Assembly (NCBI GenBank): GCA_041661045.1
Contig: JBAZVE010000001.1
Coordinates: 810,001-842,000 of the forward strand
Reading direction: 5' to 3'
DNA from: Candidatus Saccharimonadota bacterium
GTDB lineage: Bacteria; Patescibacteriota; Gracilibacteria; UBA1369; 2-02-FULL-48-14
Length of the DNA: 32,000 nucleotides
Part shown: positions 4,331 through 28,256 of the stretch, piece after piece
How the letters are laid out: every line of letters begins with the position of its first letter
Position numbering within the stretch: position 1 is the first letter of the stretch
Translations under genes and position numbers: made by a program
Notes under the pieces: generated by a model
Database searches by the model: none
Seen by the model: the letters and a program-made list of their open reading frames with translations, nothing else
Told to the model about the DNA's origin: nothing

Positions 4331-4369
4331 AACTTGCCGAGTAGGGGTAGGCTGACTCCTAATTTTATT

Positions 4370-7745: not shown

Positions 7746-8390
7746 ATGTACAAAAAGTTTGATAAAGAAAAACGACCCAGTCGAGATAGAGAGCTAACGC
7801 TTTACGAAGCGGAATGCGCGGAATGTGGGGACCGTTGTGAAGTTCCGTTTAGGCCTACAGGAAACCGACCGGTGTTTTGTCGAGACTGTTTCCGTAAGCA
7901 AGAAAATGAAGGAGAGCCACGATTTGAATCTCGAGGCCGTTCGGACCGTCAGGATCGTTTTGATCGCCCAGATCGCTCGGATCGTCAAGATCGCTCCGAA
8001 AAACGACTCTACTCCGCCACTTGTAGCAGCTGTCAAAGTGATTGTGAGGTTCCCTTTAAACCTACTTTTGGAAGACCGGTGTACTGTCATCGTTGTATGG
8101 GTGCGCAGAATAGCCCAATGGCACAGGCTTCCACTCCCGCTTCCACCGGTTCCGGATTTAAAATTTCTGAGGAGCAATTCAAGACTTTGAACGCAAAGAT
8201 GGATAAAATTTTAAGGATCTTAGAATTGGCTACTCAAGACATGGAAGAGGATGATATGCTTGAAGAGGTCGATGAGGCTCCTGCTGAGGCACCTGCTAAA
8301 AAGAAAGCGGCTGCCAAGAAAGAGCCGGCGGCTAAAAAGAAGCCCACTCGAGCTCAAGTGAAAAGAGCGGAGCGCACGGGGCGGGCTTAA
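7746..8390 (+). CDS. CxxC-x17-CxxC domain protein (two zinc-ribbon modules, DR-rich linker, Lys/Ala-rich tail)
   Basis: Two copies of C-x2-C-x(17)-C-x2-C (CAECGDRCEVPFRPTGNRPVFCRDC and CSSCQSDCEVPFKPTFGRPVYCHRC). They are separated by an RSDRQDRFDRPDRSDRQDRS repeat. The C-terminus is PAKKKAAAKKEPAAKKKP. Confidence 0.7.
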   Translation: MYKKFDKEKRPSRDRELTLYEAECAECGDRCEVPFRPTGNRPVFCRDCFRKQENEGEPRFESRGRSDRQDRFDRPDRSDRQDRSEKRLYSATCSSCQSDCEVPFKPTFGRPVYCHRCMGAQNSPMAQASTPASTGSGFKISEEQFKTLNAKMDKILRILELATQDMEEDDMLEEVDEAPAEAPAKKKAAAKKEPAAKKKPTRAQVKRAERTGRA

Positions 8391-9959: not shown

Positions 9960-10017
9960 AGTGCTTTTGGAGGCTGGATTTTAACGGCATACGCCCAGAG
10001 TGTCAAACCCGCAATTG

Positions 10018-10026
10018 TGCTACAAT
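10018..10026 (+). promoter_or_regulatory. Extended -10 element (TGcTACAAT) placed 6 nt before the ATG at 10033; implies a leaderless mRNA
   Basis: TGCTACAAT at 10018-10026, then AAGCTC, then the ATG of the lipoprotein signal peptide (MKKLFLF...). Confidence 0.45.
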
Positions 10027-10032
10027 AAGCTC

Positions 10033-10677
10033 ATGAAAAAACTTTTTCTTTTCATCTTCTTAACGGCTTGCGTTCAAAGCCCCCTCATTGAGCAATCACC
10101 AGTGGAAGAGCCGCCGGTGGAAGAACCGCCGTCCGAGGTATCCTTGGTGTACCCCATCGAAAACTTTGAAACGGGCATCACACTCAAATCTTTTGGAACT
10201 TACATCACGCCTGAAAATTCACCCGTGCAGCCCGAGCGATTTAGCGGCTATCACACGGGAGTGGACATTGAGGCGGGAGATTTAACCGGCGAGGTGCCGG
10301 TGTTTTCTATTGCGGATGGGAAAGTGGTTTTGGCTCGCACCGTGAGCGGCTATGGGGGAGTGGTGGTGGCTCAGTATTGGTTTGATGGAGCGCCGGTTTT
10401 GGCGCTTTATGGGCATTTGGATATGGGCTCGGTCACGGTTTCCGTCGGTGATGCGCTTTTGCTTGGCCAGGGATTGGGCGTGCTGGGTGAGGGTTACACC
10501 AATGAAACCGATGGAGAACGCAAACACCTCCACTTTGCTTTGATTCCCGGGGAAACGGTGCAGTTGGCGGGTTATGTTCAAAGCGAGTCCGCCTTGAGCG
10601 CTTGGCTGGATCCCGTGTCTTTCTTCGCGCAATTCACCATCCAGAGCACGCCGAACTTGTCGGTGAGAGAACCGTAA
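10033..10677 (+). CDS. M23 family metallopeptidase lipoprotein
   Basis: Signal peptide with lipobox (FLTAC) starting at ATG 10033, so the track's upstream extension from 10000 is unlikely. PVEEPPVEEPP linker, then the HTGVDI and HLHF zinc-ligand motifs of M23/LytM peptidases. Confidence 0.8.
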   Translation: MKKLFLFIFLTACVQSPLIEQSPVEEPPVEEPPSEVSLVYPIENFETGITLKSFGTYITPENSPVQPERFSGYHTGVDIEAGDLTGEVPVFSIADGKVVLARTVSGYGGVVVAQYWFDGAPVLALYGHLDMGSVTVSVGDALLLGQGLGVLGEGYTNETDGERKHLHFALIPGETVQLAGYVQSESALSAWLDPVSFFAQFTIQSTPNLSVREP

Positions 10678-11751: not shown

Positions 11752-12087
11752 ATGGTTGAATGTACTCCCGATATCGATTTGCTTTTCAGTTCGCTTGCGG
11801 ATGCGACGCGTAGGGACATTTTAAAACGCGTTTCTGTGCGGGAGATGTCGATTGGGGAGCTGTCCGAGCCGTACAAAATGTCTTTTGCCGGAATCGCCAA
11901 GCACATCGCGCTTCTGGAATCTGCAAAACTTGTGACCAAAAAACGCAGAGGCAAGCAACAAATCGTGAGCCTGGCACCCGAAAGTATTGAAGTCGTTCGC
12001 AACTATCTTAAAGAATACGAGGACTCCTGGCGGCATCGCTTTGAGGCCCTCGATACTCTACTCACTAACCCCGCTCCCCATGTTTGA
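11752..12087 (+). CDS. ArsR/SmtB family winged-helix transcriptional regulator
   Basis: 111 aa. LADATRRDILKRV...MSIGELSEPYKMSFAGIAKHIALLESAKLV matches the ArsR HTH pattern. The stop overlaps the next gene's start (ATGTTTGA, 12080-12087). Confidence 0.85.
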   Translation: MVECTPDIDLLFSSLADATRRDILKRVSVREMSIGELSEPYKMSFAGIAKHIALLESAKLVTKKRRGKQQIVSLAPESIEVVRNYLKEYEDSWRHRFEALDTLLTNPAPHV

Positions 12088-12565
12088 ACCCACTTTTGAA
12101 ACTGATTTTGAAAAGAAAACCATGACCATCACCCGCCGCTTTGCCGCTTCACGAAGTCGTGTGTGGGCAGCGTGGACCACGCCGGAATTGTTTGAAAAAT
12201 GGTGGGCGCCCAAGCCGTGGAAGGCCATTGTTAAAACCTTTGATTTTAGGGAAGGCGGGCAGTGTCACTATTATATGGAAGGTCCCGATGGAGAGAAGCA
12301 ATGGTGCTTGCTTAGTTATGAAAGCATCGATCCCGAAAATAGTTTTTCACTCTTCGATGGATTCGCGGATGAAGCCGGAAACATGACCGATGCTTTGCCT
12401 TCCATGCATTGGCGCAATGAATTTAAGGATGAAGGGGAGACCACGCTTGTCGTCGTCACCATCCAATTCCAAAAGCTTGAAGACATTCAAAAAATCATCG
12501 AGATGGGCTTCAAAGAAGGCTTCACGATGGGACTTGGCAATTTGGATGAAGTCTTGCTAGCATAA
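12080..12565 (+). CDS. SRPBCC superfamily protein (AHSA1/Aha1-like START fold)
   Basis: Start reassigned to ATG 12080 (MFEPTFE...). The SRVWAAWTTPELFEKWWAP block is typical of the AHSA1 family. ArsR followed by AHSA1 is a common gene pair. Confidence 0.75.
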   Translation: MFEPTFETDFEKKTMTITRRFAASRSRVWAAWTTPELFEKWWAPKPWKAIVKTFDFREGGQCHYYMEGPDGEKQWCLLSYESIDPENSFSLFDGFADEAGNMTDALPSMHWRNEFKDEGETTLVVVTIQFQKLEDIQKIIEMGFKEGFTMGLGNLDEVLLA

Positions 12566-13011: not shown

Positions 13012-14673
13012 CTAGTACACACTTTGCAAATAACAGCTTTCACAAAACACTATTTCCGGACGATCCGGTGAGATTGTGGAATGGAATGACTGGGTGCAGC
13101 CGGCGTTCATGCAGTTTCTGAGCCAGAATTTCCGTGGATTCCTCATTCCATGACGATTCAGTCTCCTGCAATTGAAGCATGCTCGGGGTAGGGGGATATT
13201 TTTTTTGCGGTAGTAGTTGAGTTCGTGCGCCGTGATTTTGTAGTTTTTCTTGCAGTATTCGCACGCAAGTATTTCCTCCACAATGGAATCGGTCACATCC
13301 TGGATTTTATCGGGGACTTGAGTGAGCGTTTCCTTGCCGTAGGTGCCGGGTAAATCGTCTTCCCAGTTGAATCCTTTGGCCTGCGCTTGGTCTTTTGTCG
13401 TGGGGTAAAAAAGCTGTGCGGTGGTTTCATTGTAGCCATAAGGGCTGTTTTTGATGGGAAAGAACTCGCCCCACTCGCCCGTTTGTTTCATGTATTCAAT
13501 GATCTTTGTTTTGAGTTTAAAGTAGTCTTCTTCGGAGTATTGCTTGTTTAAAATGCAGAATTTGTTTCGCTTTAAACCGAAACAGCCAAAATTTTCACTG
13601 CTGCGGTGGCAATGCATGCAATAGGTGAGATTGGAAACTTGGCCGACCGCGATGTGGCTGAAGCGAACATTAGTGACATTTGCTCCCACCATTGCACTTT
13701 CGTAACACAGCTCCATATTGATTCCGAATTGATAGATGTCGTAAGAGTCCTTGGCGTGGAGTTGAATTTGACTCAAGTATTTACAGTCTTCAATGTCGCT
13801 GCAGTCAAAACAGAATTGTGCATTTTTGGACTTATAAAGATAGTCCCCCAGGCAGTTTTCAACCATGGTGTTTTGCAGATAGCGGAATGGGTGTTTGGCC
13901 TGGAGCTCTTTAAACTTTGTTAAGTATTTTTGAACTTCTTGATGCGAACCCGTATTTAAATCTTTGATGAGGTTTTTATACGCTTCTTCACTGAGTTGCT
14001 CGTTCAAAAAACAGTATTTTTTATTTCGCAAACCCACGCACATAAAACAATCCATGCATCCCACACAATCCCTTAAAAAGGAACTGGAGGAACAGCCGGT
14101 GCAGTCTTGGCACCATGCTAAGTCATTGCTGTCCTTCACATCCACACATTCGTAACAGAGCTCTGATCCGTGGCAGTAATGCGTGTCCACACAGTCCTTT
14201 GATTTTTTAACGCCGTAGCCGTAATAACAATCTTCGGCAAAAGTGGCGTGAAAAATGAAATAGCAGTTTTTATTTTGACCTGCTTGATGAGTGTATTCGG
14301 AATTGATGTCGCCACTTTCTATCTGCACGCATTGGTGGGGGACCACCAATTCGAGCTCGCGAAACTGATCAAAAAAAGGTCGATTGAAGTCGAAATCTTT
14401 TCCGTAGGTGAGAGGGTCCCAATCATCGCCCCACCATGCTTGAACGGAGTAAACTTTCCGCGGATTTTTGGGAGAAAATTCGCTGACAATAGCTTTGCCC
14501 GTGAGATCACACTTTCGGTTGTAGAGAATGCCTTCATTGCACCAGGCCATTCGTCTCATCTCACGGCATGGAGGGCACCATGTCGGTTCCGGCACATCGA
14601 TGCGACTATAAAAAGCCCTGTCCTCCTCCATGATTTCAAAGGCTTGCGAGCAATTTTTGCATGTTTTCTGCAT
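13012..14673 (-). CDS. Cys-rich zinc-ribbon repeat protein, paralog 1 (553 aa)
   Basis: N-terminal CxxC...CPPC ribbon, DFDFNRPFFDQF, central C-rich repeats, TGEWGEFFPI, and C-terminal CEYC...CFNC and CESCY ribbons. It is colinear with the protein at 24894-26477. The start lies 8 nt after the upstream SRPBCC stop. Confidence 0.7.
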   Translation of the reverse strand: MQKTCKNCSQAFEIMEEDRAFYSRIDVPEPTWCPPCREMRRMAWCNEGILYNRKCDLTGKAIVSEFSPKNPRKVYSVQAWWGDDWDPLTYGKDFDFNRPFFDQFRELELVVPHQCVQIESGDINSEYTHQAGQNKNCYFIFHATFAEDCYYGYGVKKSKDCVDTHYCHGSELCYECVDVKDSNDLAWCQDCTGCSSSSFLRDCVGCMDCFMCVGLRNKKYCFLNEQLSEEAYKNLIKDLNTGSHQEVQKYLTKFKELQAKHPFRYLQNTMVENCLGDYLYKSKNAQFCFDCSDIEDCKYLSQIQLHAKDSYDIYQFGINMELCYESAMVGANVTNVRFSHIAVGQVSNLTYCMHCHRSSENFGCFGLKRNKFCILNKQYSEEDYFKLKTKIIEYMKQTGEWGEFFPIKNSPYGYNETTAQLFYPTTKDQAQAKGFNWEDDLPGTYGKETLTQVPDKIQDVTDSIVEEILACEYCKKNYKITAHELNYYRKKNIPLPRACFNCRRLNRHGMRNPRKFWLRNCMNAGCTQSFHSTISPDRPEIVFCESCYLQSVY

Positions 14674-14681
14674 GGATGATT

Positions 14682-15095
14682 TTACTGAAGTTGTTCGGTG
14701 AACTTTTTAAAGTTGTTTAGGATTGCCTGCCACCCGTTTCGTTGCAGTTCAAGCGAATTTTCGGATTCGGGGTCGAAGAGGACCGTCACAATTGTTCCCG
14801 CTCCTTCCGCCTCAAAATGAACTTCCACTTTTCGCGCGTCGCCTAGGGAATAGGTGAGGAGCTCGTTTGTTTTGACCTCGTCGAAGGTTCCGGAGAAATC
14901 AAAGCCAAAACTTCCGTCCTTAGCTTCCATGCGGGATGAAAAGATTCCTCCCGGTCTTAAATCGCACTCGGCTTTTGGACAGTGCCAATCGTCAGAGGCA
15001 AAGTTCCATTTTGTGATGGATTCTGGCTTTGTGTAGTGCTCCCACACTTTTTCGAGTGGGGCCTTGATGTGAACTTGGATGGAGATTTTTTCCAT
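14682..15095 (-). CDS. SRPBCC superfamily protein (AHSA1-like), second copy
   Basis: 137 aa. The LEKVWEHYTKPESITKWNF block plus its length fit AHSA1/START-like proteins. Confidence 0.75.
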   Translation of the reverse strand: MEKISIQVHIKAPLEKVWEHYTKPESITKWNFASDDWHCPKAECDLRPGGIFSSRMEAKDGSFGFDFSGTFDEVKTNELLTYSLGDARKVEVHFEAEGAGTIVTVLFDPESENSLELQRNGWQAILNNFKKFTEQLQ

Positions 15096-15111: not shown

Positions 15112-15858
15112 TTAAATCTGAATCTTTTTAAAGAAATAAGTCCCGAGTGCTAAGAAGACCACAGTGAATCCGGAGAGCACGGCTAAGTCGAGGCTGAGGC
15201 CATAGTGGCTGGTACCCAGAAGTACGCCGCGTAGGGCGTCGTTTCCGTAAGACAGAGGGTCGATTTTAGCGAGCACATCCATTATTGTTGGCAATCCTTT
15301 GAGTGGATACAGGGCTCCGGAAAGGAAGAAAAGAGGCATCACCAGGAAGTTCATGATGAGATGGAAACCTTGCATATCCTCCAAAAGAGAAGCCACCATG
15401 ATTCCCAGTGCGGTGAAGAGCAGAGCCAAGAGGAACATGATCAAAAGAGCGGGGAGTAAGCCGAGCCAGTTTTCGGGTCTGAATCCAAAGAGGATGGAAA
15501 GTCCCAGTACCAATGCTCCTTGGAAGGCGGAGATGGTGGCACCACCCAAGGTTCGGCCCATCATGATGTTGAGGCGAGAGGTGGGGGCCACGAGCGTTTC
15601 TTTAAGGAAGCCAAATTGACGATCCCAAATCACGGACATTCCGGAGAACATGCCACTGAAAATGATGCTCATACCAATGATTCCTGGGGCAAGGAAATTG
15701 AGGTAGTTTCCCTCTCCGGCTTGTTGAAACACGCTGCCAAAACCGTAGCCGAGCGCAAGTAAATAGAGGAGAGGTTGTGCCAATGAACCAATGGTGCGCG
15801 ACTTGGAACGCAGGTAGCGTTTGATTTCCCGGAGCCAAAGAATATAGATTTTTTTCAT
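15112..15858 (-). CDS. ABC-2 type transporter permease
   Basis: 248 aa with about six hydrophobic helices. It lies immediately downstream of a DrrA-like ATPase, as is typical of ABC-2 exporters. Confidence 0.8.
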   Translation of the reverse strand: MKKIYILWLREIKRYLRSKSRTIGSLAQPLLYLLALGYGFGSVFQQAGEGNYLNFLAPGIIGMSIIFSGMFSGMSVIWDRQFGFLKETLVAPTSRLNIMMGRTLGGATISAFQGALVLGLSILFGFRPENWLGLLPALLIMFLLALLFTALGIMVASLLEDMQGFHLIMNFLVMPLFFLSGALYPLKGLPTIMDVLAKIDPLSYGNDALRGVLLGTSHYGLSLDLAVLSGFTVVFLALGTYFFKKIQI

Positions 15859-15887
15859 AGTTGTATAAGGTACTTGAAAGGGCCTGG

Positions 15888-16679
15888 TTATTTACGGGCG
15901 CCCCACATGCGGGCCATGGTTCGGTTGCGGTCGGCGGTGGTGGAGCCTTCTTCACGGATCTTGTTTCCGGTGAGTTTAAGAAAAGCCTCTTCAAGCGACT
16001 CCGTTTCGGTTTGTTTTTTGAGTTCGCCAGGCGTGCCGGATGCAATGATTTTTCCGTGGTCGATCACGCAGATGCGCTGGGCGTTTTTTTCTGCTTCTTC
16101 CATGTAGTGAGTGGTGAAGAACACGGTGGTCCCTTCTTCTTTATTCAATTTTTTGAGGTAAGTCCACATGTGATTGCGCGTTTGGGGATCGAGTCCGAGG
16201 GTGGGCTCATCGAGGAAAATAATTTTGGGGTGGTGCATGAGTCCACGGGCGATTTCGAGACGGCGCTTCATGCCTCCGGAGAATTCTTTAACGAGGTCGT
16301 TTTTGCGGTCGAGCAGGTCCACGAAGCCGAGCAAATCTTCGATCCGTTTTTTGAGGATAGAGCCGGGAACATCGTAAAGCACGCCATGCAATTCCATGTT
16401 TTCGTAGGCGGTGAGCTCGTCATCCAGGCTGTGATCTTGGAACACAATTCCAAAGCAGCGCCGTACCGCGTCCGGATCTTTTTCCGGATCGTGACCATTC
16501 AACGACACATGGCCTTCGCTGGCGGAAAGTAGCGTGGTGAGGATCTTAATAGTTGTGGATTTTCCCGCTCCATTTGGGCCGAGGAATCCAAAAATTTCAC
16601 CGGACTTCACTTCAAATGAAATGTCATCCACGGCCACAATATCCCCAAATTTTTTAGACAGATTTTTTACTTGAATCAT
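15888..16679 (-). CDS. ABC transporter ATP-binding protein (DrrA/ABC-2 exporter type)
   Basis: 263 aa. Walker A GPNGAGKST, signature FSGGMKRRL, Walker B IIFLDEPTLGLD, H-loop TTHYMEE. Confidence 0.9.
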   Translation of the reverse strand: MIQVKNLSKKFGDIVAVDDISFEVKSGEIFGFLGPNGAGKSTTIKILTTLLSASEGHVSLNGHDPEKDPDAVRRCFGIVFQDHSLDDELTAYENMELHGVLYDVPGSILKKRIEDLLGFVDLLDRKNDLVKEFSGGMKRRLEIARGLMHHPKIIFLDEPTLGLDPQTRNHMWTYLKKLNKEEGTTVFFTTHYMEEAEKNAQRICVIDHGKIIASGTPGELKKQTETESLEEAFLKLTGNKIREEGSTTADRNRTMARMWGARK

Positions 16680-16753: not shown

Positions 16754-17608
16754 ATGAAAAAAGAGATTTTTGCCAGCCTCCTATTTGTTTCTTTGCTCTT
16801 GGGATGTGAAAATGTTGAAGTTGTTGAAGTTGTTGATGAGCCGCTCGAAGAACTAAAAACTGAAGTTGTTGACACAAGCATAAAAGCAAACGAAGGGTTC
16901 ATTCTTTTAAACTCTATTGTTTCTAATAATGCCCAAAAAATTGTTTATAGTGAGATCAGCGAGTGTGCGGAAAGCGCGACAAATTTTAGTACTTACTTAA
17001 CAGACAAGTATTTTCAAGGAAGCAACTGTGATTCATGGGTCTACAATGTTTACACGGTCGATTTAGCCTCTCAAAAAGTTAGGAATATTTATAGCTCTGA
17101 AGATCAGTTTTCGTGGATTCCTGTTGCCAAAGCGGGTGGTTGTCAAAACATATATCTTCCCATTGCTTGGTCAAAGGATGACGGAAAAATCGTTCTGGAA
17201 AGTGCCTGGCCCCCTTCAAATTGTGGTGCCGATGGAGGCTCTGAATACCTTTATTATACTTTAGACAGTACTGGAGGTGAGCTGGAACCGTTGGCCCCCT
17301 CTACTGCACTGTTTTTCTCGGATTACAGTGAGCTTATTTTTACTTTTTCTAGCGAAAAATCACCTAGTATTTCTTGTGGTCCTGGTTCAAGCAATAATAA
17401 TGGGAAAATAGTCGTCAAGAATATAGAAACAGGGGAGGAGCGCATAGTTCTTGAGGAGGAAAATACTTATTACGAACTGGTTGGCATAGATGAAATGGCC
17501 AGGACGGTTGACTTTAAAAGTGCCCCACATACACAGGGATGCACCGTGCAAGATAGCAATCCATATGATAGTGGCGCAGAACTTGAAGAGAGAGAGCTGA
17601 GTTTGTAG
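16754..17608 (+). CDS. Lipoprotein of unknown function
   Basis: 284 aa. Signal peptide with lipobox LLLGC, an acidic VEVVEVVDE linker, and a Cys-containing beta-rich body. No recognised domain. Confidence 0.55.
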   Translation: MKKEIFASLLFVSLLLGCENVEVVEVVDEPLEELKTEVVDTSIKANEGFILLNSIVSNNAQKIVYSEISECAESATNFSTYLTDKYFQGSNCDSWVYNVYTVDLASQKVRNIYSSEDQFSWIPVAKAGGCQNIYLPIAWSKDDGKIVLESAWPPSNCGADGGSEYLYYTLDSTGGELEPLAPSTALFFSDYSELIFTFSSEKSPSISCGPGSSNNNGKIVVKNIETGEERIVLEEENTYYELVGIDEMARTVDFKSAPHTQGCTVQDSNPYDSGAELEERELSL

Positions 17609-17627: not shown

Positions 17628-18626
17628 TCAACGATGATGGCGTTGGGGTTTTAGCAGTGCTTGGATTTTCCTTTGGGTACTCTCTAGTGCTGCTTCTAAA
17701 CTTTCTGATTGGTGGCCCAGCTCTCTTCCAGCTAGTTCTTGCAGGTTCATGTTTATAAATGGGTATCTCCGTTGTCCTTCTTTTTTGTGATATTCCTCCA
17801 CAGGGTCTCCTTTTCTTTTATGACGAGCGAGCAGTTCAGTCATCCGAAAAATGCTTTCTTTTGGAAAGCCGCTGCTTGCCACTCTTCTCAGAGCATCGTC
17901 CGATTCATCCACGAGAAGGATTCCAAAACTTCGATGCACCGCAATTTCATTAGGGATTATCAATTGGGGTCCTTCCCAGCCTGCTGCTCTGCCCCCTACA
18001 ATGGGTGTATTTGGGAACGACGATTGAAACGCGTACTCTAATCGAGTCGGAGTCCATCGTGCCAGAAATGCTGCGAATACCTCTCTAAAGTATCTGCTAT
18101 CTAGAGACTCGGAAAAGAATGCTTGTGAAGCCTGTGTATTTCTATTTTCTGGGTCTAGGTTTGGAGCCGTTCTTTGCGCTATCTGGATTGCCTCTGGAGA
18201 AACAAGTGCTCCATGATGCACGATTTCTCTCATATTGATGACTGCATTTTCTTCATCAATTATAGAATTGGGAAAGAGAAGATATGCGGGCTGAACATCG
18301 GCTGGATGGACTCTCCCCACTCCCAAAAAAACATAGTTATCTAAACCTAGACTGATGTCTAACTGGTCCGTTGCATTATTCAACCGGTCCTCAACAATTT
18401 CCGGGTGAACTTCTCTTAAACGGCGATGGGAATAGAGCACTCCATCACGGATTATGCTCAATAGCCTATTTATAGTGGTTCCATGTACCGCTGGCAAGTT
18501 CCTTGCTATCTCTAACTGAGTCTTATTGGGATGGATACCCTCTATAAGCATTGTCTTTGCAAGGTGCTCTCGATTGCTGTCCAGGTCAATTTGGCGGTCA
18601 AAGTAAGTTTTCAAGTGATAAGGCAA
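17628..18626 (-). CDS. Orphan protein with an ADP-ribosyltransferase-like (H-Y-E class, DarT/PARP-like) N-terminal motif; start uncertain
   Basis: 332-aa ORF beginning at TTG. Residues 48-69, HGTTINRLLSIIRDGVLYS, resemble the HxT...N.L.SIL..G.L.S strand-helix of DarT/PARP-type ARTs. YVFLGVG (about residue 98) and PNEIAV (E227) are candidate Y and E elements. The call rests on motifs only. Confidence 0.45.
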   Translation of the reverse strand: MPYHLKTYFDRQIDLDSNREHLAKTMLIEGIHPNKTQLEIARNLPAVHGTTINRLLSIIRDGVLYSHRRLREVHPEIVEDRLNNATDQLDISLGLDNYVFLGVGRVHPADVQPAYLLFPNSIIDEENAVINMREIVHHGALVSPEAIQIAQRTAPNLDPENRNTQASQAFFSESLDSRYFREVFAAFLARWTPTRLEYAFQSSFPNTPIVGGRAAGWEGPQLIIPNEIAVHRSFGILLVDESDDALRRVASSGFPKESIFRMTELLARHKRKGDPVEEYHKKEGQRRYPFINMNLQELAGRELGHQSESLEAALESTQRKIQALLKPQRHHR

Positions 18627-18726: not shown

Positions 18727-18755
18727 TTGACAATGATGTCAAAACATTATAATAT
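18727..18755 (+). promoter_or_regulatory. Near-consensus promoter TTGACA-N17-TAATAT for the four-gene + strand cluster
   Basis: TTGACA at 18727-18732, a 17-nt spacer, TAATAT at 18750-18755 (with an overlapping TATAAT at 18748-18753). The TTG start given in the ORF track is the -35 hexamer itself. Confidence 0.55.
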
Positions 18756-18780
18756 GACAACCTTTTCTATTTTATTTTCA

Positions 18781-19779
18781 ATGAAACAAGTCCTCGCCAT
18801 CAACGCCACTCAAGGTCTAGAAGATCAGGAATATGCTGATCTAGCCTTCCATGACATTCCTCATTCTAAAGATGGTTTAGCGATCACTGCGCTCAGTGCG
18901 CACACCACTTCCGTGGATGATTTAATGGCTGCGATGCTCAAAGCAGACTTTATTGAGGCTTCAGGTTCATATTTGGATGTCGGGGTCATAGATCCTCAGA
19001 CAGGAGAGTCCCGACTCAATACCCACCCTACAGTTGTTAAGATGGTGGATCTTTTCCGGTTTTTACTTCTTATGAAGCACAAGGGAGACCCTCGTTGCGC
19101 CCGAGTGGCAGGTCTTCTCAATTGTATGAGTCATCAGGCGAATTGTGTGGCTGCTGCTACCTTGGCACGCGGTTTGCGGCAAGGAATGGATGTAGAAGCC
19201 ATTCAAGCCCCTAGTGATCTGGCAAGTCAGTGTCCTTTGGAAGAGGTATGTTCAGGTTTTGACTTCCCTCTAAAGGCTTTAACAGGTAGTCACATTGGTG
19301 CTTATCCAGTGGAATTTGCGCCTGGTGCCCCTGAATGGCTACAAGCAGGCCTTCCATCTCAAGTGCCTTTGTTGTTTCTCCACAATTGGGTGGTGCCTGC
19401 GGATGCTTTAGAAGACGCTGAGGCTGTTTTGCCTGGATTCCAGATCGCCGCTACTCGCAGAGATACCATCCGTCGAGGAGGCAGAGTCCTTACTCAACCT
19501 GTGGTGGCTCTTACGGGCTGGGGCTCTTGGGTCAGTGGACAAAACCATATGGATTATGGTGCAGATGGATCCATCTTTGCTCGCATGCTCGGGAGGGCGG
19601 TGGCCAGTGGTACTACTTTTGAAGGCACATTTTATCCTCAAAGTGGGGGACTTTGTCCTCAAACAGGATCTGAGCGCTCTATTGAAGAGGCAATTCAAGA
19701 CTTAATGAAAACCGAAACTCCGTTGAGTCTAGTGCTTCGAAATAGGGTTTTCGCTCGAGCAAGAATGGGCGAAGCATAA
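18781..19779 (+). CDS. Orphan protein A (332 aa) of the island
   Basis: Start reassigned to ATG 18781 (MKQVLAINAT...), downstream of the promoter. No motif recognised. It is not obviously membrane or secreted. Confidence 0.5.
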   Translation: MKQVLAINATQGLEDQEYADLAFHDIPHSKDGLAITALSAHTTSVDDLMAAMLKADFIEASGSYLDVGVIDPQTGESRLNTHPTVVKMVDLFRFLLLMKHKGDPRCARVAGLLNCMSHQANCVAAATLARGLRQGMDVEAIQAPSDLASQCPLEEVCSGFDFPLKALTGSHIGAYPVEFAPGAPEWLQAGLPSQVPLLFLHNWVVPADALEDAEAVLPGFQIAATRRDTIRRGGRVLTQPVVALTGWGSWVSGQNHMDYGADGSIFARMLGRAVASGTTFEGTFYPQSGGLCPQTGSERSIEEAIQDLMKTETPLSLVLRNRVFARARMGEA

Positions 19780-19784
19780 TGCTA

Positions 19785-19812
19785 TTGACTTATATAAATT
19801 TCATGTTAATAT
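19785..19812 (+). promoter_or_regulatory. Internal promoter TTGACT-N16-TAATAT ahead of the cupin gene
   Basis: TTGACT at 19785-19790, a 16-nt spacer, TAATAT at 19807-19812, 29 nt before ATG 19842. Confidence 0.45.
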
Positions 19813-19841: not shown

Positions 19842-20531
19842 ATGGAGTTGATTACCTCGGCTTCCGATCTATCTAGTACTTTAGACCGTCTGCATCCTGC
19901 TGATTATCCAGCAAGATTGAGGATGTCTCGTCCTGGATTTGAACATTTTGCTGCTCAGCTACCTGTTATTGATCCAACGCTTCCTGTTGAAATGGTTCAA
20001 GCGGAACTCCAACAGGTTAGAGCGGTTTTAGGTGGAGTATCTGGGCAACTCAAGGATCAGTGGGAACAACTAAATATTCCTCAAATGCGGGACGGAGTTT
20101 TTGGCCGAGTGATTTTAGGCATGGAGGAACCTACGGAGCTTCCTGGAGGGAACCTCCATGGAGGAACTTTAATAGTGCTGGGTTTGTGGGGCAATGGATT
20201 TGCTTGGGTCCCTCACGGGCATGAAGCTGGTTTTATGCATGAGGAGTTGATTCGTGGGGCTGCTGAAGTACGTATGTTTGATGTAGTGGATCCGGTACGG
20301 CGTACGGTAAAAGAATCTAGAAGAGTGGTTTTTGATCGACCAGGGATCATGGCTTCTGCTTATTGTCCTGAAGGTTCTGCTCCTGACTTGGGATTCAACC
20401 TTCATGCGGTCAAAGGAGTTGCGCCAGGAACTACAGTTACTCTTCACTATCTTCCTGGACATGTGCGGGATACTCGAGGTAGTGCCTTTACTGAAGTTCC
20501 CTTGGATCAAATGCCTGAATTTAGAACTTAA
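19842..20531 (+). CDS. Cupin-fold protein resembling cysteine dioxygenase type I / thiol dioxygenases
   Basis: 229 aa. PHGHEAGFMHEELIRG (H125, H127) lines up position for position with the CDO HDHTDSHCFLKLLQG block. LHAVKGVAPGTTVTLHYLPG (H188) lines up with the CDO LHRVENVSHTEPAVSLHLYSPP block. This gives a 3-His metal site. Confidence 0.55.
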   Translation: MELITSASDLSSTLDRLHPADYPARLRMSRPGFEHFAAQLPVIDPTLPVEMVQAELQQVRAVLGGVSGQLKDQWEQLNIPQMRDGVFGRVILGMEEPTELPGGNLHGGTLIVLGLWGNGFAWVPHGHEAGFMHEELIRGAAEVRMFDVVDPVRRTVKESRRVVFDRPGIMASAYCPEGSAPDLGFNLHAVKGVAPGTTVTLHYLPGHVRDTRGSAFTEVPLDQMPEFRT

Positions 20532-20566: not shown

Positions 20567-21835
20567 ATGGAAAATCCTTCCACCACCACCGGTACCGATG
20601 CTCGCATCAGCGATCATCGTTTCAGTCGACCCTTTGATCCTGATGATGCACTGGCTCCTATTGACATCCAAGAGGGGACCTTAGACCTCTCAAGATTTGT
20701 AGTGGAAGCAGAAGAAAGTGCACAACAAAGAGCAGAGGTAGTCAGGAAACGCAATCCCATTGGAGCCAGTCTCGTTGAAGAAGATCGTGTGAGAGCTCAA
20801 GCAGAGCAGATTCTTGGTATTCTTTCTTTGGCTCGTTACCGAAAGGGTTCTGTACGCCTCATTGAAGAGGGTAAACCAGAGTTTATGGCTCGTATTGAAG
20901 ATGCTATTCGTGCTCAACGCCCTGTAGAGATCATTCTTAGTTTCTTCTGCTATAAGGCTTTGAATCCTTTGAAGACCTTTGCTCAGACTGGAACGGAAGT
21001 AGATCTTTCAGAGTATGCTTCGGTCCTTCGTTTCTACGAGATCGCAAAGGCCATTGAAGCTGTGTATGAACCTGGGGCACGCGTCCTTGTGGCGTGTGAC
21101 GGGACCAAGTACGCAGATGCCATTGGATTTACTCGTGCGCAGGGGCAGGGTTATTACGAGGCTATAAGAGCTATGGCTGAAGGAATGGGTCTAAGTGACC
21201 AAGTGGTTCTTTTTGATGAAGCTGATTACTATTCTCCAGGCATTGAAGAGAGTATGGCGATACACCAGCGGCGCATCCAGGATGCCTTGGACTCTGGTGA
21301 TCAAGCACTTAGGGATCAAGTGGGTATGATGCAACGCAGTCTCGCTCTTTATACGCCTCTTCCAGGTGGACTTTCTGTAGCTACGGTTGGAAGTGCTTTT
21401 AGTGCGATCCCCGATGAGGTGCTCGCTGCTCGCAATCCCGAGGCTATGGACTTGAGACAGTGGATTTTGGGTAGGTCTTGGGAGGTAGCTGTGCAATATA
21501 TTGCAGCTTATGATGCTGTAAAAGCAGATGGTGCATTGGCTCGAGCCGGTGCACGCGCAGTCCGTGCAACTGTCCATCCAAAGGCTGGTCAGGTTGGACT
21601 TTACGCCATCGGTGAAAGTGCAACTCAGGCTTTTCCTCACCACATTCAAGGTACTTTCAGAGGTCATAGTGTAGGTGCTTTGGGTGATGTCCGTGTAGAA
21701 TTTAGAGTGGATCTTGAACGAGAGAATGCAGAGATGCAAAGGGTCGGAGGAACTTTGCGCGGTGTCTCTTTATCTAAGCAATATCCTTTTCTTAATGCCC
21801 AGTCTTCACACCCTTTTTACTTTCAAGCTCAGTGA
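20567..21835 (+). CDS. Divergent PvcA/Dit1 (isonitrile-synthase) family protein with a ~115-aa N-terminal extension
   Basis: 422 aa. PVEIILSFFCYKALNPLK matches the family block hFVLPAFPxKSPNxxK. AVYEPGARVLVACDGTKYAD matches YxPGAxhxIxSDGxVF. AVRATVHPKAGQVGLY matches hRLSIHP...KhGI. FPHHIQG matches TPWHG. The blocks occur in the same order and similar spacing as I recall for P. aeruginosa PvcA. Confidence 0.55.
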   Translation: MENPSTTTGTDARISDHRFSRPFDPDDALAPIDIQEGTLDLSRFVVEAEESAQQRAEVVRKRNPIGASLVEEDRVRAQAEQILGILSLARYRKGSVRLIEEGKPEFMARIEDAIRAQRPVEIILSFFCYKALNPLKTFAQTGTEVDLSEYASVLRFYEIAKAIEAVYEPGARVLVACDGTKYADAIGFTRAQGQGYYEAIRAMAEGMGLSDQVVLFDEADYYSPGIEESMAIHQRRIQDALDSGDQALRDQVGMMQRSLALYTPLPGGLSVATVGSAFSAIPDEVLAARNPEAMDLRQWILGRSWEVAVQYIAAYDAVKADGALARAGARAVRATVHPKAGQVGLYAIGESATQAFPHHIQGTFRGHSVGALGDVRVEFRVDLERENAEMQRVGGTLRGVSLSKQYPFLNAQSSHPFYFQAQ

Positions 21836-22616: not shown

Positions 22617-23375
22617 ATGTTCATGAAAACAATAGTGACGATTGGTGGTTATCTCAAAGAAGGCGGCGAAGGTGCAGGCAGTTGGCTTGATATGTGGTTT
22701 GACACCCCTATTGAAATTGATCGTGAGATTGTGAAGCTCACGGGTAAAAAGGCCCCGAGAGTGCTTTTTATACCGACTGCGAGTAGTGATTCAAGAGGTT
22801 ACGAAGCGGCTTTTAGGAAAAATTATGAAGGCAAACTCAACTGTGAAGTGGATGTGCTGAAACTTGTCCGAGAAAAATCTAGCCCTAAAGGGATCCAAAC
22901 CAAGATCGACTGGGCGGACATCATTTATGTCGGAGGTGGTAACACACTAAAGATGATGAAGAAGTGGCGTAGGCTAGGCGTGGATAAAATGCTCAAGCGC
23001 GCTTGGGAACAAGGGAAGGTTCTTTGTGGTGTCAGTGCAGGCTCCATTTGTTGGTTTGAGTATGGGATCAGCGACAGTCTTCATTTTTATAACTCAAAAG
23101 AAACGAAATACATCAGGGTGCGTGGTCTTGGTTTTTTGAAAGGTATTCACAACCCACATTTTGGAAGTGAGAGGGAAGATTGCAAATATCGTACCAAGGG
23201 TATGAAAGAAATCATGCAACGGTCTAAAGGAAAATGTTTAGGTGTTCCCGATGCGTGTGCGGTGATTTTTGAAGGGAATCACTATCGAGTTATTGGAAAG
23301 CCGGAAGCAAGTCAGGTTTGGTATGAGAAAGGCAAGTATTGTGAACGCCAGATTCCTAGAGAGGGGGTTAGCTGA
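22617..23375 (+). CDS. Peptidase S51 family protein (dipeptidase E / cyanophycinase-like)
   Basis: 252 aa. VLFIPTASSD, GGGNT and the nucleophile elbow GVSAGSICW are typical of S51. The alternative start ATG 22623 (MKTIV...) fits the leaderless pattern. Confidence 0.75.
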   Translation: MFMKTIVTIGGYLKEGGEGAGSWLDMWFDTPIEIDREIVKLTGKKAPRVLFIPTASSDSRGYEAAFRKNYEGKLNCEVDVLKLVREKSSPKGIQTKIDWADIIYVGGGNTLKMMKKWRRLGVDKMLKRAWEQGKVLCGVSAGSICWFEYGISDSLHFYNSKETKYIRVRGLGFLKGIHNPHFGSEREDCKYRTKGMKEIMQRSKGKCLGVPDACAVIFEGNHYRVIGKPEASQVWYEKGKYCERQIPREGVS

Positions 23376-23428: not shown

Positions 23429-24016
23429 ATGGAAAACACAAGACGAGCGGCTTATGGGAAATTGCTTGGGCGCCTTGAAGAGCCCATTAGAGAGGTGGTT
23501 CCTGCTCTATGGGATTTACCCTTTGTCATGGACACGGGTTTCACTTGTTCAGGGCATATTCTTAGAGAGCCTGATGGGATTTTGGGCAAAAGACCTGATT
23601 TTGGTGGGTATATTTGGTATCCGCATCGGGCCATGTTGGAACTTGCTTTTTCTCATGATGAAGCCTTGGTCACAGCTCGAGATGCTTTCCGAAGAGATCT
23701 TGCGGCGGTTGCTGTTGAAGTCGATGGTCTGGCGCTTGGCTTTAATGCCGGGCATGCTTTTGACCAAGAGTTTCTGCCCTATTCACGCATCCCGGACCCC
23801 AATCTATCAGAAAATTACAATGCGGTTCTTCCTGAAGTCCCTCGAGAAGAGAGTTCTGTTATAAGAGTGGAAACCTTACTTACAGCGTTTTGGGAAGCAG
23901 TTGCTGCCGTCGTTCGCCGACACAGCCCTAATGCAAAAATTGGACCTATTGCAGGCAAAAACTTTCGAAGTAGAAAGAATTGGGATCATTGGCCGCTCTC
24001 TGGACAAGAGAAATAA
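23429..24016 (+). CDS. Hypothetical protein
   Basis: 195-aa ORF. No motif recognised. Confidence 0.45.
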   Translation: MENTRRAAYGKLLGRLEEPIREVVPALWDLPFVMDTGFTCSGHILREPDGILGKRPDFGGYIWYPHRAMLELAFSHDEALVTARDAFRRDLAAVAVEVDGLALGFNAGHAFDQEFLPYSRIPDPNLSENYNAVLPEVPREESSVIRVETLLTAFWEAVAAVVRRHSPNAKIGPIAGKNFRSRKNWDHWPLSGQEK

Positions 24017-24856: not shown

Positions 24857-24886
24857 TTGCTTGTCTTATGATGGGGCCCATTAAAT
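24857..24886 (+). promoter_or_regulatory. Promoter TTGCTT-N18-TTAAAT placed 7 nt before ATG 24894
   Basis: TTGCTT at 24857-24862 and TTAAAT at 24881-24886. The track's ATG at 24885 lies inside the -10 hexamer. ATG 24894 gives MNTCHHC, which aligns with MQKTCKNC of the paralog. Confidence 0.4.
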
Positions 24887-24893
24887 GCATTCT

Positions 24894-26477
24894 ATGAATA
24901 CCTGTCACCACTGCTCTCAACCCTTTGAAATCACGGACAGCGACCGTGCGTTTTATCAAAAAGTAGAGGTTTCTGAACCGACGCACTGCCCGGCTTGCCG
25001 CCTGCAACGCCGACTTGCGTACCGCAACGAGTCGCATTTGTACCAGCGCACTTGTGACCTCTGCCAAAAGGGCGTTTTCTCGCTCTATGATATGGATGCA
25101 CCTTTCCCGGTTTACTGTACGGACTGCTGGTGGAGCGACCGCTGGGATCCGGAAGCGTATGGCCGGGATTACGATTTCAATCGGCCATTCTTTGAACAGT
25201 TTGCCGAGCTGCTCACGGTGGTGCCACAGGCGTGTACCCTTCAACTCAACAACGAAAATTCGGAGTTCAACTCGCTTATTGCCTATTCTAAAAATGCCTA
25301 CATGTGTGCGGGTAGTTATTTTATGGAAGATTCGTATTACTGTCGCAAAAGTCAGTACTGCCGTGACTGCATGCACAGCCACTTTTTGGATCACTGTGAG
25401 TTGGTGGCCTACAGCACAAATTGTAAAAACTGCTACAGCGCGCATCATTTGCTCAACTGCCGAAACTGCTCGGCTTCTGCGTATTTGGCCAACTGCAGCA
25501 ATTGTAAAAACTGCTTCATGTGCAGCGATCTTAATGAGAAAGAGTATCACTTTAAAAATCAAGCGGTTGGCAAAGAAGAATATGAGCGACTTCGAAAAGA
25601 ATACGCACAAAAAGATCCCAAGGCCGTGATGGAGGAATTCATGGCGTTCAATCAAAGCGTGCCCAAGCGGAATCTGAACTTATTGAATTGCGAGAATTCT
25701 ACGGGGGACTACCTCAGCAGTGCCAGCAACGCGGAGGTCTGTTTTGATTCTTTCGACATCCAAGATTCAAAATACTTAACGGAATGCGTCACGGTGAAAG
25801 ATTCCATGGATCTCACCTGCCACGACAAAGAGATCCAATTGTGCTACGAAATGGTGACGGGAGGGGAGAGCAATTACCAATCCAAGTTTGGCGTGTGCAG
25901 CTGTGCTGGGCCCAACAATTCCTACTGCCTCAGCACCTTTTATCTTTCCGATAGTTTTGGATGCATCAGTTTTCATTCCCGCAAACGCAATTGCATTCTC
26001 AACAAAGCCTATTCGCCTGAGCGCTATGCGGAGCTGAAGGCACGGATCGTGGAACACATGAAATCCACGGGGGAGTGGGGAGAATTTTTCCCCATTGCGA
26101 ATAGCACCTATGCGTACAACCAGACTTTGGCTCAGGTTTATTTCCCGCTCACCAAAGAGACTGCCCTGGCTCAAGGCTACCGCTGGAAAGAGGAAGTCGA
26201 GCGCGGAGATGGCCCCAGCGCTGCACTCCGTTGTGAAGCATGCAACAAGGCCTACCGCACGGTCCCGCAAGAGAAAAACTTGGCGGGGAAGATTGGAGTG
26301 GAGAGCTCTAGCAAATGCCTCGAGTGCATGGATCGGCACTTGCTCTCTTGGAAAAACCCTCGGGCCCTTTGGCCACGCAACTGTGATCTCTGCCATGCTT
26401 CCATGATGAGCAGTTACGCTCCCGGCAGACTGGAAAAAGTTTACTGTGGCTCGTGTTATTCACAAATGGTGTATTGA
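24894..26477 (+). CDS. Cys-rich zinc-ribbon repeat protein, paralog 2 (~527 aa)
   Basis: Colinear with 13012-14673. Shared blocks: DRAFY, CPxCR, DYDFNRPFFEQF, CILNKxYS, STGEWGEFFPI, and the terminal CGSCYSQMVY versus CESCYLQSVY. Confidence 0.7.
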   Translation: MNTCHHCSQPFEITDSDRAFYQKVEVSEPTHCPACRLQRRLAYRNESHLYQRTCDLCQKGVFSLYDMDAPFPVYCTDCWWSDRWDPEAYGRDYDFNRPFFEQFAELLTVVPQACTLQLNNENSEFNSLIAYSKNAYMCAGSYFMEDSYYCRKSQYCRDCMHSHFLDHCELVAYSTNCKNCYSAHHLLNCRNCSASAYLANCSNCKNCFMCSDLNEKEYHFKNQAVGKEEYERLRKEYAQKDPKAVMEEFMAFNQSVPKRNLNLLNCENSTGDYLSSASNAEVCFDSFDIQDSKYLTECVTVKDSMDLTCHDKEIQLCYEMVTGGESNYQSKFGVCSCAGPNNSYCLSTFYLSDSFGCISFHSRKRNCILNKAYSPERYAELKARIVEHMKSTGEWGEFFPIANSTYAYNQTLAQVYFPLTKETALAQGYRWKEEVERGDGPSAALRCEACNKAYRTVPQEKNLAGKIGVESSSKCLECMDRHLLSWKNPRALWPRNCDLCHASMMSSYAPGRLEKVYCGSCYSQMVY

Positions 26478-27245: not shown

Positions 27246-28256
27246 CTATCTTTTCCTCATAGCCTTCAGCACTTTGAGGTACATGGCTTCCACGATTTTT
27301 TCCTGTGCTTTCCCGGTGGTCACATAGTGGTCGAGTCCGGGGGCGGCATTGATCTCAATAATATAATAGCCGTCTTTTTTTGGAGCTTCGGTAATTTCTC
27401 CTTCAGTCACCATGATGTCCACGCCGGCTATCCGGAGACCCATGTCTTTTGTCAGACGGATCGCGATTTTTTTGAATTTTGGATGGATGGTGGCTGTTAC
27501 ATCTTTTGATTCGCCGCCGGTGGAGAGGTTGGAGTTTGGGAGTAGAGTTATGCTTTCACCCTTGGCGAGCACGGTTCTCAAGTTTTTGTCCTTCGATTTC
27601 AACATTTTTAAGATGCGTGGATCGCGAAGGTTGATGCGCGTGTCTCGTTTTTTCTTTTTAAAAAGTTTCTGTTTAGCTACCAGCAGTTCACTAATATTTT
27701 TTTGTCCGTCTCCCGTTACTGAAAGCGCAACCCTTTCGTATGCAGAAATGATCTTGCCATCAAGCGTCACCACTCGGTAATCCCTTCCGGGCTTATACTC
27801 TTCCACAATAGCGACCCGATCATCTTCAAATGCGTCGTTCAGTGCGCGGAGCAATTCTTTTGAATTATGCACCAAGGTGACTCCGTGCCCCTGACTGGAA
27901 GAATTTGGTTTTACGATGAGGGGATATCCGATTTTTTTCGCATAGCTCAGGGCCGTTTTGGCCGTGTCTTTGCTTCCAATTACTTTTGCCCACCAAGGTT
28001 TAAAAAATTCTTTACCGTTGGCTACCGGGTAGCCCATTTTTTGCATAAAAAATTTCGCAAAGCCTTTGTCCTTTGCAATATCCGACGCGCCGACAGGATT
28101 GAGGTCCAGCGTATAGAAACGAAGATAGCGATTCACTCCATTGCTGTAACGGATTTGTGCCACAATCTTCCATTTCGGTTCAACAATGACTTTCGCGCCC
28201 ACTTTAGGAGCCAACTTTTGTATGAGCGCGGTTAGGTAGGGCGTTTCTTTTTTCAT
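27246..28256 (-). CDS. Stand-alone ATP-grasp ligase resembling the ATP-grasp (G) domain of cyanophycin synthetase
   Basis: 336 aa. ASDIAKDKGFAKFFMQKMGYPV, YPLIVKPNSSSQGHGV, NLSTGGESKDVTATIHPKF and GVDIMV...YIIEINAAPGLDHY follow the CphA ATP-grasp block order. No Mur-ligase-like domain is attached. Confidence 0.65.
   Translation of the reverse strand: MKKETPYLTALIQKLAPKVGAKVIVEPKWKIVAQIRYSNGVNRYLRFYTLDLNPVGASDIAKDKGFAKFFMQKMGYPVANGKEFFKPWWAKVIGSKDTAKTALSYAKKIGYPLIVKPNSSSQGHGVTLVHNSKELLRALNDAFEDDRVAIVEEYKPGRDYRVVTLDGKIISAYERVALSVTGDGQKNISELLVAKQKLFKKKKRDTRINLRDPRILKMLKSKDKNLRTVLAKGESITLLPNSNLSTGGESKDVTATIHPKFKKIAIRLTKDMGLRIAGVDIMVTEGEITEAPKKDGYYIIEINAAPGLDHYVTTGKAQEKIVEAMYLKVLKAMRKR

Follow-up and report, generated by a model that had tools for sequence, protein, structure and literature searches.

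A deep-branching DIT1_PvcA-family protein encoded beside a predicted thiol-dioxygenase-like cupin in a small conserved gene cassette

This work concerns a stretch of 32,000 nucleotides (positions 810,001 to 842,000 of contig JBAZVE010000001.1, hereafter the window) from an assembly labelled Candidatus Saccharimonadota bacterium, and a gene within it, here called B, that encodes a divergent protein of the DIT1_PvcA, or isonitrile-synthase, family. B lies between two further genes, A and C, and recurs with these partners, and with a further domain, D, at other loci (designated by the prefix L), in a variety of arrangements. B belongs to a known enzyme family, of which it is a new and deep-branching variant, and the combination of A, often joined to D, with B looks like an undescribed pathway architecture. 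The balance of the evidence tips towards B being a catalytically competent member of the isonitrile-synthase superfamily that carries out a single step within a compact and conserved biosynthetic cassette, which probably marks an undescribed small-molecule pathway. Database records list the proteins of the window as hypothetical; CPR denotes the candidate phyla radiation, a group of ultra-small bacteria.

19842 to 20531, + strand: A, a 229-aa cupin with a predicted thiol-dioxygenase-like fold and a presumed three-histidine (3-His) site, the partner of B; orthologues adjoin B at L001, L003, L006, L007 and L008
20567 to 21835, + strand: B, the divergent DIT1_PvcA (isonitrile-synthase family) protein; a single open reading frame (ORF) from ATG to TGA, 422 aa
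21885 to 22496, + strand: C, a 203-aa predicted helical protein, the CPR-type cassette partner; orthologues at L001, L003 and L006

The Pfam profile DIT1_PvcA (PF05141) matched B with E=1.1e-15 and 58.4 bits, relative to a gathering score of 26.4, and a phmmer search of the PDB sequences returned PvcA (3e59, E=5.6e-8) and PIsnA (9dhm and 9dh4, E=2e-7) as its only significant entries. The Pfam match spans positions 1-113 of the 273 in the profile (query 110-226), corresponding only to the first two of the four motif blocks considered below, and the single-sequence matches were confined to the first half of the domain (query ~102-226), meaning the C-terminal blocks of B required a separate test. 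Their validation comes solely from profile searches and a structure model. When all 1.84 billion proteins of a representative set were searched exhaustively with a profile, 1,789 scored as relatives at E<=1e-3 and 137 of these also passed E<=1e-30; many of the relatives matched the profile from positions ~70 to ~408, thereby spanning both halves. When a profile of 68 sequences, with B as the first, was compared with the PDB sequences, the E-values were 1.2e-39 for PvcA (its residues 39-295) and 1.1e-35 for PIsnA, with 'iRaTVHPKpg..Q' aligned to 'IRLSIHPQPA', and 'vfPhhGvgv' to 'LTPWHGVAV'.

The AlphaFold2 (AF2) model of B, generated from the same 68-sequence alignment, had a mean pLDDT of 95.5 and a pTM of 0.94. 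Only eight chains in the PDB were matched by Foldseek at E<=1e-3, all of them PIsnA (9dh4, 9dhm) or PvcA (3e59), with E between 5e-13 and 4.5e-11, a probability of 1.0, target-normalised TM scores of 0.63-0.73 and ~19% identity; the next matches were tyrosyl-tRNA synthetases, with E of ~1e-2 and TM scores of 0.2-0.35. A preliminary description of B, made from the letters of the window, had proposed its membership of the PvcA/Dit1 family, and had named a non-significant hidden Markov model (HMM) E-value, or a predicted structure lacking the PvcA fold, as grounds for abandoning the idea. Both were checked: the HMM match is significant, and the PvcA fold is predicted. Hence, judged from sequence and modelled structure, B is a member of the DIT1_PvcA superfamily, as had been proposed.

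The same description had located the ORF and the four motif blocks, and the translation confirms each of these positions. The blocks, together with the N-terminal region that precedes them, are as follows.

20567 to 20863, + strand: clade-specific N-terminal region of B, residues 1-99, with a conserved 'SDHRFxxP' segment (from the clade alignment and structure model)
20942 to 20968, + strand: block 1, FFCYKALNP, residues 126-134; counterpart of FPxKSPN in PvcA/IsnA, with the family consensus FPxKxxNP
21065 to 21103, + strand: block 2, YEPGARVLVACDG, residues 167-179; counterpart of YAPGAKITVCSDG in PvcA, with G170, D178 and G179 conserved family-wide
21560 to 21583, + strand: block 3, VRATVHPK, residues 332-339; counterpart of IRLSIHPQ in PvcA, with R333, T335, H337 and P338 conserved
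21632 to 21652, + strand: block 4, FPHHIQG, residues 356-362; counterpart of TPWHGVA in PvcA

The ORF of B stops at a TGA codon where those of its orthologues end, with a TAA eight codons further on, and therefore Gracilibacteria code 25 was rejected; the ORFs of A, B and C are all intact under translation table 11.

Compared with IsnA, PvcA and PIsnA (PF05141; PDB 3E59, 9DH4, 9DHM and 9DHN), B has the same predicted fold and is homologous across the whole catalytic core. The four blocks occur in the same order, and the Lys, the Asn, D..E, DG, R.[ST].HP and the block-4 His are common to all. The differences lie within the blocks, where the clade of B has SFF[PGC]xK for the LPAFPxK of PvcA/IsnA, without the Ser-Pro, and where B has HPK for HPQ, and FPHH.QG for TPWHGVA; in the length of the protein; and in the partner genes, which do not include IsnB/PvcB.

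Several results place B far from the PvcA/IsnA subgroup. It scored only 33 bits against the NCBIfam PvcA equivalog, NF045653, for which the cut-off is 600, and hence, at the level of sequence, is not a PvcA orthologue. The subgroup's signature (FP[AT]KSPN, IHPQ and TPWHGV) is absent from B, which has FCYKALN, VHPK and FPHHIQG instead. A neighbour-joining tree built from 129 family members and the PvcA and PIsnA cores placed B within an 11-member inner clade, itself nested inside a clade of ~27 representatives; PvcA and PIsnA were remote from B, with a corrected distance of 2.4. This distance and the low equivalog score bear out the deep-branching position that had been suggested for B. The eight closest members of the inner clade share 38-48% pairwise identity. 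Close relatives of B are found in Candidatus Peregrinibacteria (P0003), and a scan with an eight-sequence alignment identified them in two Candidatus Peribacteria metagenome-assembled genomes (MAGs), and no others, with an outer-clade member originating from Candidatus Obscuribacterales. So far, the inner clade is a feature of the CPR lineage.

The preliminary description had regarded FPxKSPN as a family hallmark that is altered in B, and the altered motifs as a sign of a different substrate or chemistry. It was correct in that Lys130 and Asn133 are kept, these residues also being conserved among the 68 aligned relatives, and in that the Ser-Pro is absent. However, the two positions after the block-1 Lys are highly variable across these relatives (V/A/I/C/S and R/L/P/Q), and KSPN is carried by none of the best 150 family representatives. 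Hence this comparison of sequences indicates FPxKSPN is the signature of the PvcA/IsnA subgroup, and not of the whole family. The sole clade-specific change in block 1 is that of Pro128 to Cys or Gly, with this position occupied by Pro in 15, Gly in seven and Cys in two of 26 close relatives. Similarly, K339 in block 3 of B is the family consensus, with Gln found in PvcA and PIsnA. The residues conserved across the clade of B, the wider family, and PvcA and PIsnA, which are termed family-wide on the basis of their conservation, are all present in B: K130, N133, D146, E149, D178, G179, Y196, R333, T335, H337, P338 and H359. As these polar residues are retained, the motif changes by themselves would seem to provide no argument for new chemistry, and the earlier interpretation of them does not stand in the form in which it was put. 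The case for a different pathway rests more on the conserved gene partners than on the motif changes.

The clade nevertheless has markers of its own. These comprise S125-F126, replacing Pro-[Ser/Ala]; K136-T137, R155 and E158; and, in block 4, H358 for Trp and Q361 for Val. Position 360, which is Ile in B, is Gly in 62 of the 68 relatives, and varies between G, A, V and I within the inner clade. The number of private changes in B at otherwise invariant sites is six, with a range of one to six across its orthologues, and by this measure B is under the same constraint as they are. The N-terminal region is also distinctive. The preliminary description counted ~115 residues before the core, which holds if the core is taken to begin with the Pfam model; relative to PvcA, the true extension is ~60 aa, as residue 47 of PvcA aligns with residue 107 of B in the phmmer comparison. 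This addition, with a longer helical middle and a C-terminal tail, makes B ~90 aa longer than PvcA and PIsnA. The N-terminal region is predicted to be ordered (pLDDT of 87-98 from residue 11), with A12, H17, R18, F19, P22 and D27 invariant in the inner clade, and members of the wider family match the clade profile only from approximately position 70 onwards.

It is the arrangement of the neighbouring genes that suggests B functions as part of a larger unit. In the window, A, B and C share a strand; the ORF coordinates leave 35 nt between A and B and 49 nt between B and C, and neither interval contains a terminator-like site. A promoter-like site precedes A, although the scan that identified it was weak, having found 11 sites in total when 6.9 +/- 2.4 were expected.

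19785 to 19812, + strand: promoter-like site immediately preceding A (TTGACT and TAATAT, 16-nt spacer, TG present)

A and B co-occur with C or D in the window and in five more CPR-type contexts (L001/L002, L003-L005, L006, L007 and L008). The gene order is A-B-C in the window and L003, B-C-A in L001 and L006, and A-B, in which an A-D fusion is followed by B, in L007 and L008. D is a domain of ~110 aa with the motif 'GDVYLVRS..GDHYVLI.GG..QKPHG.RP.D'. Three loci (L001, L007 and L008) have it as a C-terminal fusion to A and two (L003 and L006) as a C-terminal fusion to C, whereas in L010 it is a separate protein encoded immediately after B. Such rearrangement of gene order and alternative fusion of D are classical evidence for A, B and C/D forming a functional unit, and suggest that they do so here. 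C is restricted to CPR-type loci, and neither C nor D has a match in Pfam, NCBIfam, the PDB (by sequence or profile), PHROGs or PADLOC. The ORF directly upstream of A in the window (18727-19779) has no counterpart at the other cassette loci.

The partner with the most informative similarities is A. Its AF2 model (pLDDT 91.4) is a beta-barrel preceded by helices, and nearly all of the top 50 Foldseek matches to this model in the PDB were cysteine dioxygenase (CDO), 3-mercaptopropionate dioxygenase (MDO), plant cysteine oxidase (PCO), ADO, mercaptosuccinate dioxygenase or the sulfonamide synthase SbzM, with a probability of 1.0. The best was the CDO of B. subtilis (4qm9, E=8e-7, TM score 0.71), with further matches to rat and human CDO, 6xb9, PCO4/5, 9dxb and 9ug7. 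By sequence, the A profile matched CDO with E=5e-4; A matched nothing in NCBIfam and, as a single sequence, nothing in the PDB. Across 43 sequences of the A family, W116, G117, H125, H127, G130, E134, G139, H188, H202 and H207 are invariant, forming the motif 'WGxGFxxPxHGHxxGxxxExLxxG', a later His, and then 'HYLPxH'. The presumed metal site in the window's copy of A comprises two segments.

20187 to 20258, + strand: residues 116-139 of A, WGNGFAWVPHGHEAGFMHEELIRG, corresponding to cupin motif 1, in which H125 and H127 are presumed to bind Fe; aligns with WGEGHGSSIHDH of CDO
20403 to 20462, + strand: remaining half of the metal site presumed for A, with H188 (presumed third Fe ligand) and 'LHYLPGH' (H202, Y203 and H207)

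The HDH stretch within WGEGHGSSIHDH, which we take to supply the Fe ligands His86 and His88 of CDO, aligns with the HGH of A, and H188 lies a few residues, within a gapped region, from the CDO residue that is presumably His140. At the second-sphere Ser-His-Tyr triad, the S/T200-L-H202 of A aligns with Ser153-Leu-His155 of CDO, with the Tyr of A at +1 (Y203), directly after His202, and not at +2. In place of Cys93 of CDO, A has Met132 (Met or Ile across the family), so no Cys-Tyr cross-link like that of Cys93 with Tyr157 in eukaryotic CDO would be formed. Further differences of A from the thiol dioxygenases (CDO, MDO, PCO, ADO and SbzM) are an extra N-terminal helical region of ~85 residues, usual fusion to D, and the additional invariant E134 and HYLPxH motif. 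By sequence and model, A appears to be a remote member, or a relative, of the 3-His iron cupins.

In the characterised pathways, IsnA/PvcA-type enzymes combine the amino nitrogen of Tyr or Trp with a carbon of ribulose-5-phosphate to form an isonitrile (PMC7949033), and Fe/2-oxoglutarate partners of the PvcB/IsnB type then desaturate or decarboxylate, giving a vinyl isonitrile or an isocyanoacrylate (PMC9467999). None of the 26 ORFs scanned in the window encodes such a TauD-family Fe/2-oxoglutarate dioxygenase, and neither does any called gene at L001-L005, L008-L016 or L021. Instead, the position next to the synthase gene is taken by A, which resembles IsnB/PvcB in being a tightly linked, iron-enzyme-like gene in the same genomic position, and in sharing the broad double-stranded beta-helix, or cupin, structural class. 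It differs from them in being small (229 aa), in lacking a Pfam TauD match, and in being nearest to 3-His thiol dioxygenases rather than to TauD-type enzymes, with three invariant His for a 2-His-1-carboxylate triad, and with structural relatives that use no 2-oxoglutarate. A may nonetheless be functionally equivalent to IsnB/PvcB. A search of one literature library found no paper on the DIT1_PvcA family in CPR bacteria, nor on an isonitrile synthase together with a CDO-like cupin. Yeast Dit1, which forms N-formyl-tyrosine for the spore wall, and the fungal isocyanide synthase (ICS) enzymes XanB and CrmA belong to the same Pfam family as B, and differ in being eukaryotic, and in having as partners the P450 Dit2, or fused dioxygenase or non-ribosomal peptide synthetase-like domains. 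Among the best 150 family representatives, the clade of B showed no specific similarity to them. The substrate of CrmA is the non-aromatic valine (PMC9381783), so the family extends beyond Tyr and Trp.

The pairing of A with a member of the family extends beyond the clade of B. The A family comprises 44 clusters in 5.8 billion, none of them with a Pfam domain, and at all informative A loci examined there is a PF05141 gene that is either adjacent or one to two genes away, and which is in some cases of the canonical type. At L013, from a MAG labelled Deltaproteobacteria, a B gene directly upstream of an A-D fusion encodes a protein that is 36% identical to PvcA, and which possesses FPCKSPN, HPQ and TPWHGV. 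Such pairing of A with a canonical-type B argues that the type of reaction catalysed by B is shared. In L014 and L015, an A-D fusion has B one or two genes further on, with surroundings of many small ORFs, sigma factors, peptidase_M15 and split RNA-polymerase genes; in these phage-like regions B is again of the canonical type. Three predicted viral contigs from IMG/VR, of 95-125 kb, encode an A-D fusion followed by a canonical-type, PvcA-like B of ~300 aa, in a phage-type module that also includes a protein termed E.

L017, 5917 to 8449: phage-type module A-D + B + E on an IMG/VR contig
L018, 5920 to 8240: phage-type module A-D + B + E on an IMG/VR contig
L020, 5992 to 8425: phage-type module A-D + B + E on an IMG/VR contig

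A fourth IMG/VR contig (L019, 71 kb) is truncated at its end. Genes of phage families are likewise present on L018, one of them for a tRNA nucleotidyltransferase. E is a protein of ~110 aa that is conserved in the phage-type loci, has two invariant Cys, and is unrelated to C or D by profile-profile comparison. In another phage-like context, featuring SSB and AAA_24, positions 5976-6875 of L016 encode a 299-aa chimera (P0202) of the N-terminal half of A, through the HGH, and the C-terminal half of B, which was probably generated by a deletion between adjacent genes. No match to A-D or B was found in the 50,697 phage genomes of INPHARED, nor in PHROGs or PADLOC, and BFVD contained no PvcA fold, so that among these viral collections the module is confined to metagenomic contigs of IMG/VR; phage-borne homologues of isonitrile synthases seem not to have been reported before. 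A different arrangement was observed at L012 (3930-9332), in a non-CPR-looking genome, where an outer-clade B is found together with a DIT1_PvcA paralogue in tandem, an MFS transporter and two genes resembling methyltransferases, an arrangement reminiscent of a separate type of biosynthetic gene cluster.

By analogy with the characterised enzymes, B would join an amino acid, through its alpha-amino group, to the carbonyl of a ketose phosphate, which is ribulose-5-phosphate in those enzymes, such that one carbon would stay on the nitrogen as an isonitrile, or as the hydrated N-formyl form. A would bind Fe(II) through its three His, as in CDO, and would use O2, without 2-oxoglutarate, to oxidise the product of B, or its precursor, in place of IsnB/PvcB, with C, D and E acting as accessory components. 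What the analysis shows is the family membership and predicted fold of B, its retained polar residues, the predicted fold and invariant His triad of A, and the conserved linkage with its domain fusions; how B reacts, which step comes first, the use of O2 by A and a diffusible product are inferred. That A is always found with a B, and B is sometimes found without A, is the pattern expected of a tailoring enzyme acting on the product of a synthase. The idea that a 2-oxoglutarate-independent partner would suit organisms with minimal metabolism, and phages, is a rationalisation, and not evidence; the likeness of A to thiol dioxygenases raises a sulfur amino acid as a substrate for the pathway, as a lead only. 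A bolder proposal, which is possible yet can only be advanced tentatively, is that A(+D)+B constitutes an unrecognised isonitrile, or N-C1, pathway of Peribacteria, Peregrinibacteria and large phages, in which a 3-His iron enzyme replaces IsnB/PvcB, aided by families without relatives (C and D in CPR, D and E in phages), to make a reactive metabolite, metal-binding or toxic, that these organisms of minimal metabolism would use on their hosts. Its substrate would perhaps be a sulfur amino acid, giving an undescribed class of compound.

Multiple observations weigh against B acting in such a biosynthetic cassette. Peribacteria are described as mostly fermentative, a lifestyle that is awkward to reconcile with an enzyme dependent on O2. 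The assignment of A to the thiol dioxygenases applies at the level of fold and profile only, with A having no Pfam match at E<=1, including to CDO_I (PF05995) and PCO_ADO (PF07847). No orthologue in its group is as divergent as the window's copy of A, in which 19 positions that are otherwise invariant carry private substitutions, compared to one to nine in five orthologues. Several of the 19 flank the His ligands; examples of the substitutions are SPVHGH to WVPHGH, IHNF to LHAV, and HYLPEH to HYLPGH. The cassette in the window is atypical in that an HMM search over six frames did not find D, and a database search with the D profile returned no D-family protein from the window's 1.3-Mb contig, although this search was word-seeded, and is not conclusive. 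Furthermore, B is not strictly dependent on A, as members of its clade occur without A at L009, where the neighbours are MFS, HAD and PurU-like genes, at L010, where B is found with D only, at L012, and at L021, where B stands alone. Finally, the family is not limited to the release of an isonitrile, given yeast Dit1 is reported to produce formyl-tyrosine, rather than isocyano-tyrosine or a free isonitrile (PMC7345447).

This last result, from a member of the same Pfam family as B, raises the idea that B is Dit1-like, making an N-formyl-amino-acid product that is built into the cell envelope or surface, with A cross-linking or oxidising the formylated residue in a manner comparable to Dit2. 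Envelope genes are indeed found near the CPR loci, with a sortase, SLT and M23 peptidases at L001, glycosyltransferases, BacA and MscL at L010, and an M23 peptidase in the window (10000-10677). However, these neighbours are not conserved between loci, unlike A, B, C and D; no P450-type oxidative cross-linking enzyme is present; and it is hard to picture a spore or cell-wall role for A-D and B on viral contigs. We therefore consider such a role quite improbable. Another explanation is that B has kept its fold while acting on another amine, or through another chemistry, with Cys or homocysteine, a nucleotide or a peptide N terminus as candidate substrates, and that the cassette is a mobile module for conflict or host manipulation instead of classical secondary metabolism. 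The viral contigs of IMG/VR and the phage-like contexts near tRNA nucleotidyltransferase, SSB and sigma factors would be in keeping with this, as would the clade substitutions at S125/F126, R155, E158, H358 and Q361, the conserved and ordered 60-aa addition at the N terminus, and a partner resembling thiol dioxygenases, the substrates of which are cysteine-like. Yet A also pairs with a B bearing the full PvcA/IsnA signature at L013, meaning the partner alone implies no new chemistry, all of the family-wide polar residues of B are retained, and the module is absent from PADLOC, the INPHARED genomes and BFVD. This explanation is consequently unlikely, albeit not to the same degree as a Dit1-like role.

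The atypical features of the window's cassette could alternatively indicate that it is a decaying remnant, in which B is intact and the pathway is no longer functional in this genome. The missing D, the private substitutions in A, some of them beside the His ligands, and the Ile360 of B, where most relatives have Gly, would all be explained by decay. Against this, A, B and C are full length, without frameshifts or stops; all of the invariant His, Gly and Trp of A are kept; B is no more divergent than its orthologues; and position 360 is tolerant of variation in the inner clade. L010 provides another example of a partial combination of the module. Decay is therefore very unlikely, and the reading of B as a competent enzyme in a biosynthetic cassette is retained as the best explanation.

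Isonitrile natural products include metal-binding compounds, virulence factors and antibiotics, and to our knowledge only two enzymatic routes to isonitriles exist, through IsnA/PvcA-type synthases and through ScoE-type Fe/2-oxoglutarate enzymes. CPR bacteria are usually thought to be almost without specialised metabolism. Were the proposed function of the cassette correct, the first of these routes would be extended to a new clade, and to a partnership of a synthase with a CDO-like cupin that has no requirement for 2-oxoglutarate, and specialised metabolism would be placed both in CPR bacteria and on phage genomes. The orphan families A, C and D, none of which is in Pfam, would thereby gain a concrete and testable functional context. 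As the cassette is short, consisting of three genes across ~2.7 kb, its direct synthesis and expression are possible.

The window contains no tRNA, and no riboswitch or other Rfam family. Directly downstream of C is a peptidase S51 gene (22617-23375; cyanophycinase/dipeptidase E-like, 158 bits), and 4 kb beyond it a RimK-like ATP-grasp ligase (27246-28256, - strand); neither is conserved beside the cassette at other loci. At the opposite end of the window, a DsbD_2 membrane domain fused to a cupredoxin-like domain (57-896) is followed by a heavy-metal P-type ATPase with an HMA domain (1133-3310), and these are probably a copper-handling pair. A link between the cassette and this ATPase was considered, since isonitriles bind copper, and rejected, as the two are 17 kb apart, and the association is not conserved elsewhere.

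Six ORFs, of 195-619 aa, have no Pfam match (4334-6193; 13012-14673, - strand; 16754-17608; 17628-18626, - strand; 18727-19779; and 23429-24016), and the four of these between 16754 and 24016 have no significant match in NCBIfam either; such a density of unmatched ORFs is typical of CPR genomes. Treble-clef zinc-finger proteins are encoded at 7746-8390 (214 aa, with zf_Tbcl_2 twice) and at 24885-26477 (530 aa, with an N-terminal zf_Tbcl and no other assignment). Two proteins of the AHSA1/SRPBCC fold (11987-12565; and 14682-15095, - strand) flank an unassigned ORF of 553 aa, and this region adjoins an ABC-2 transporter pair (15112-16679, - strand).

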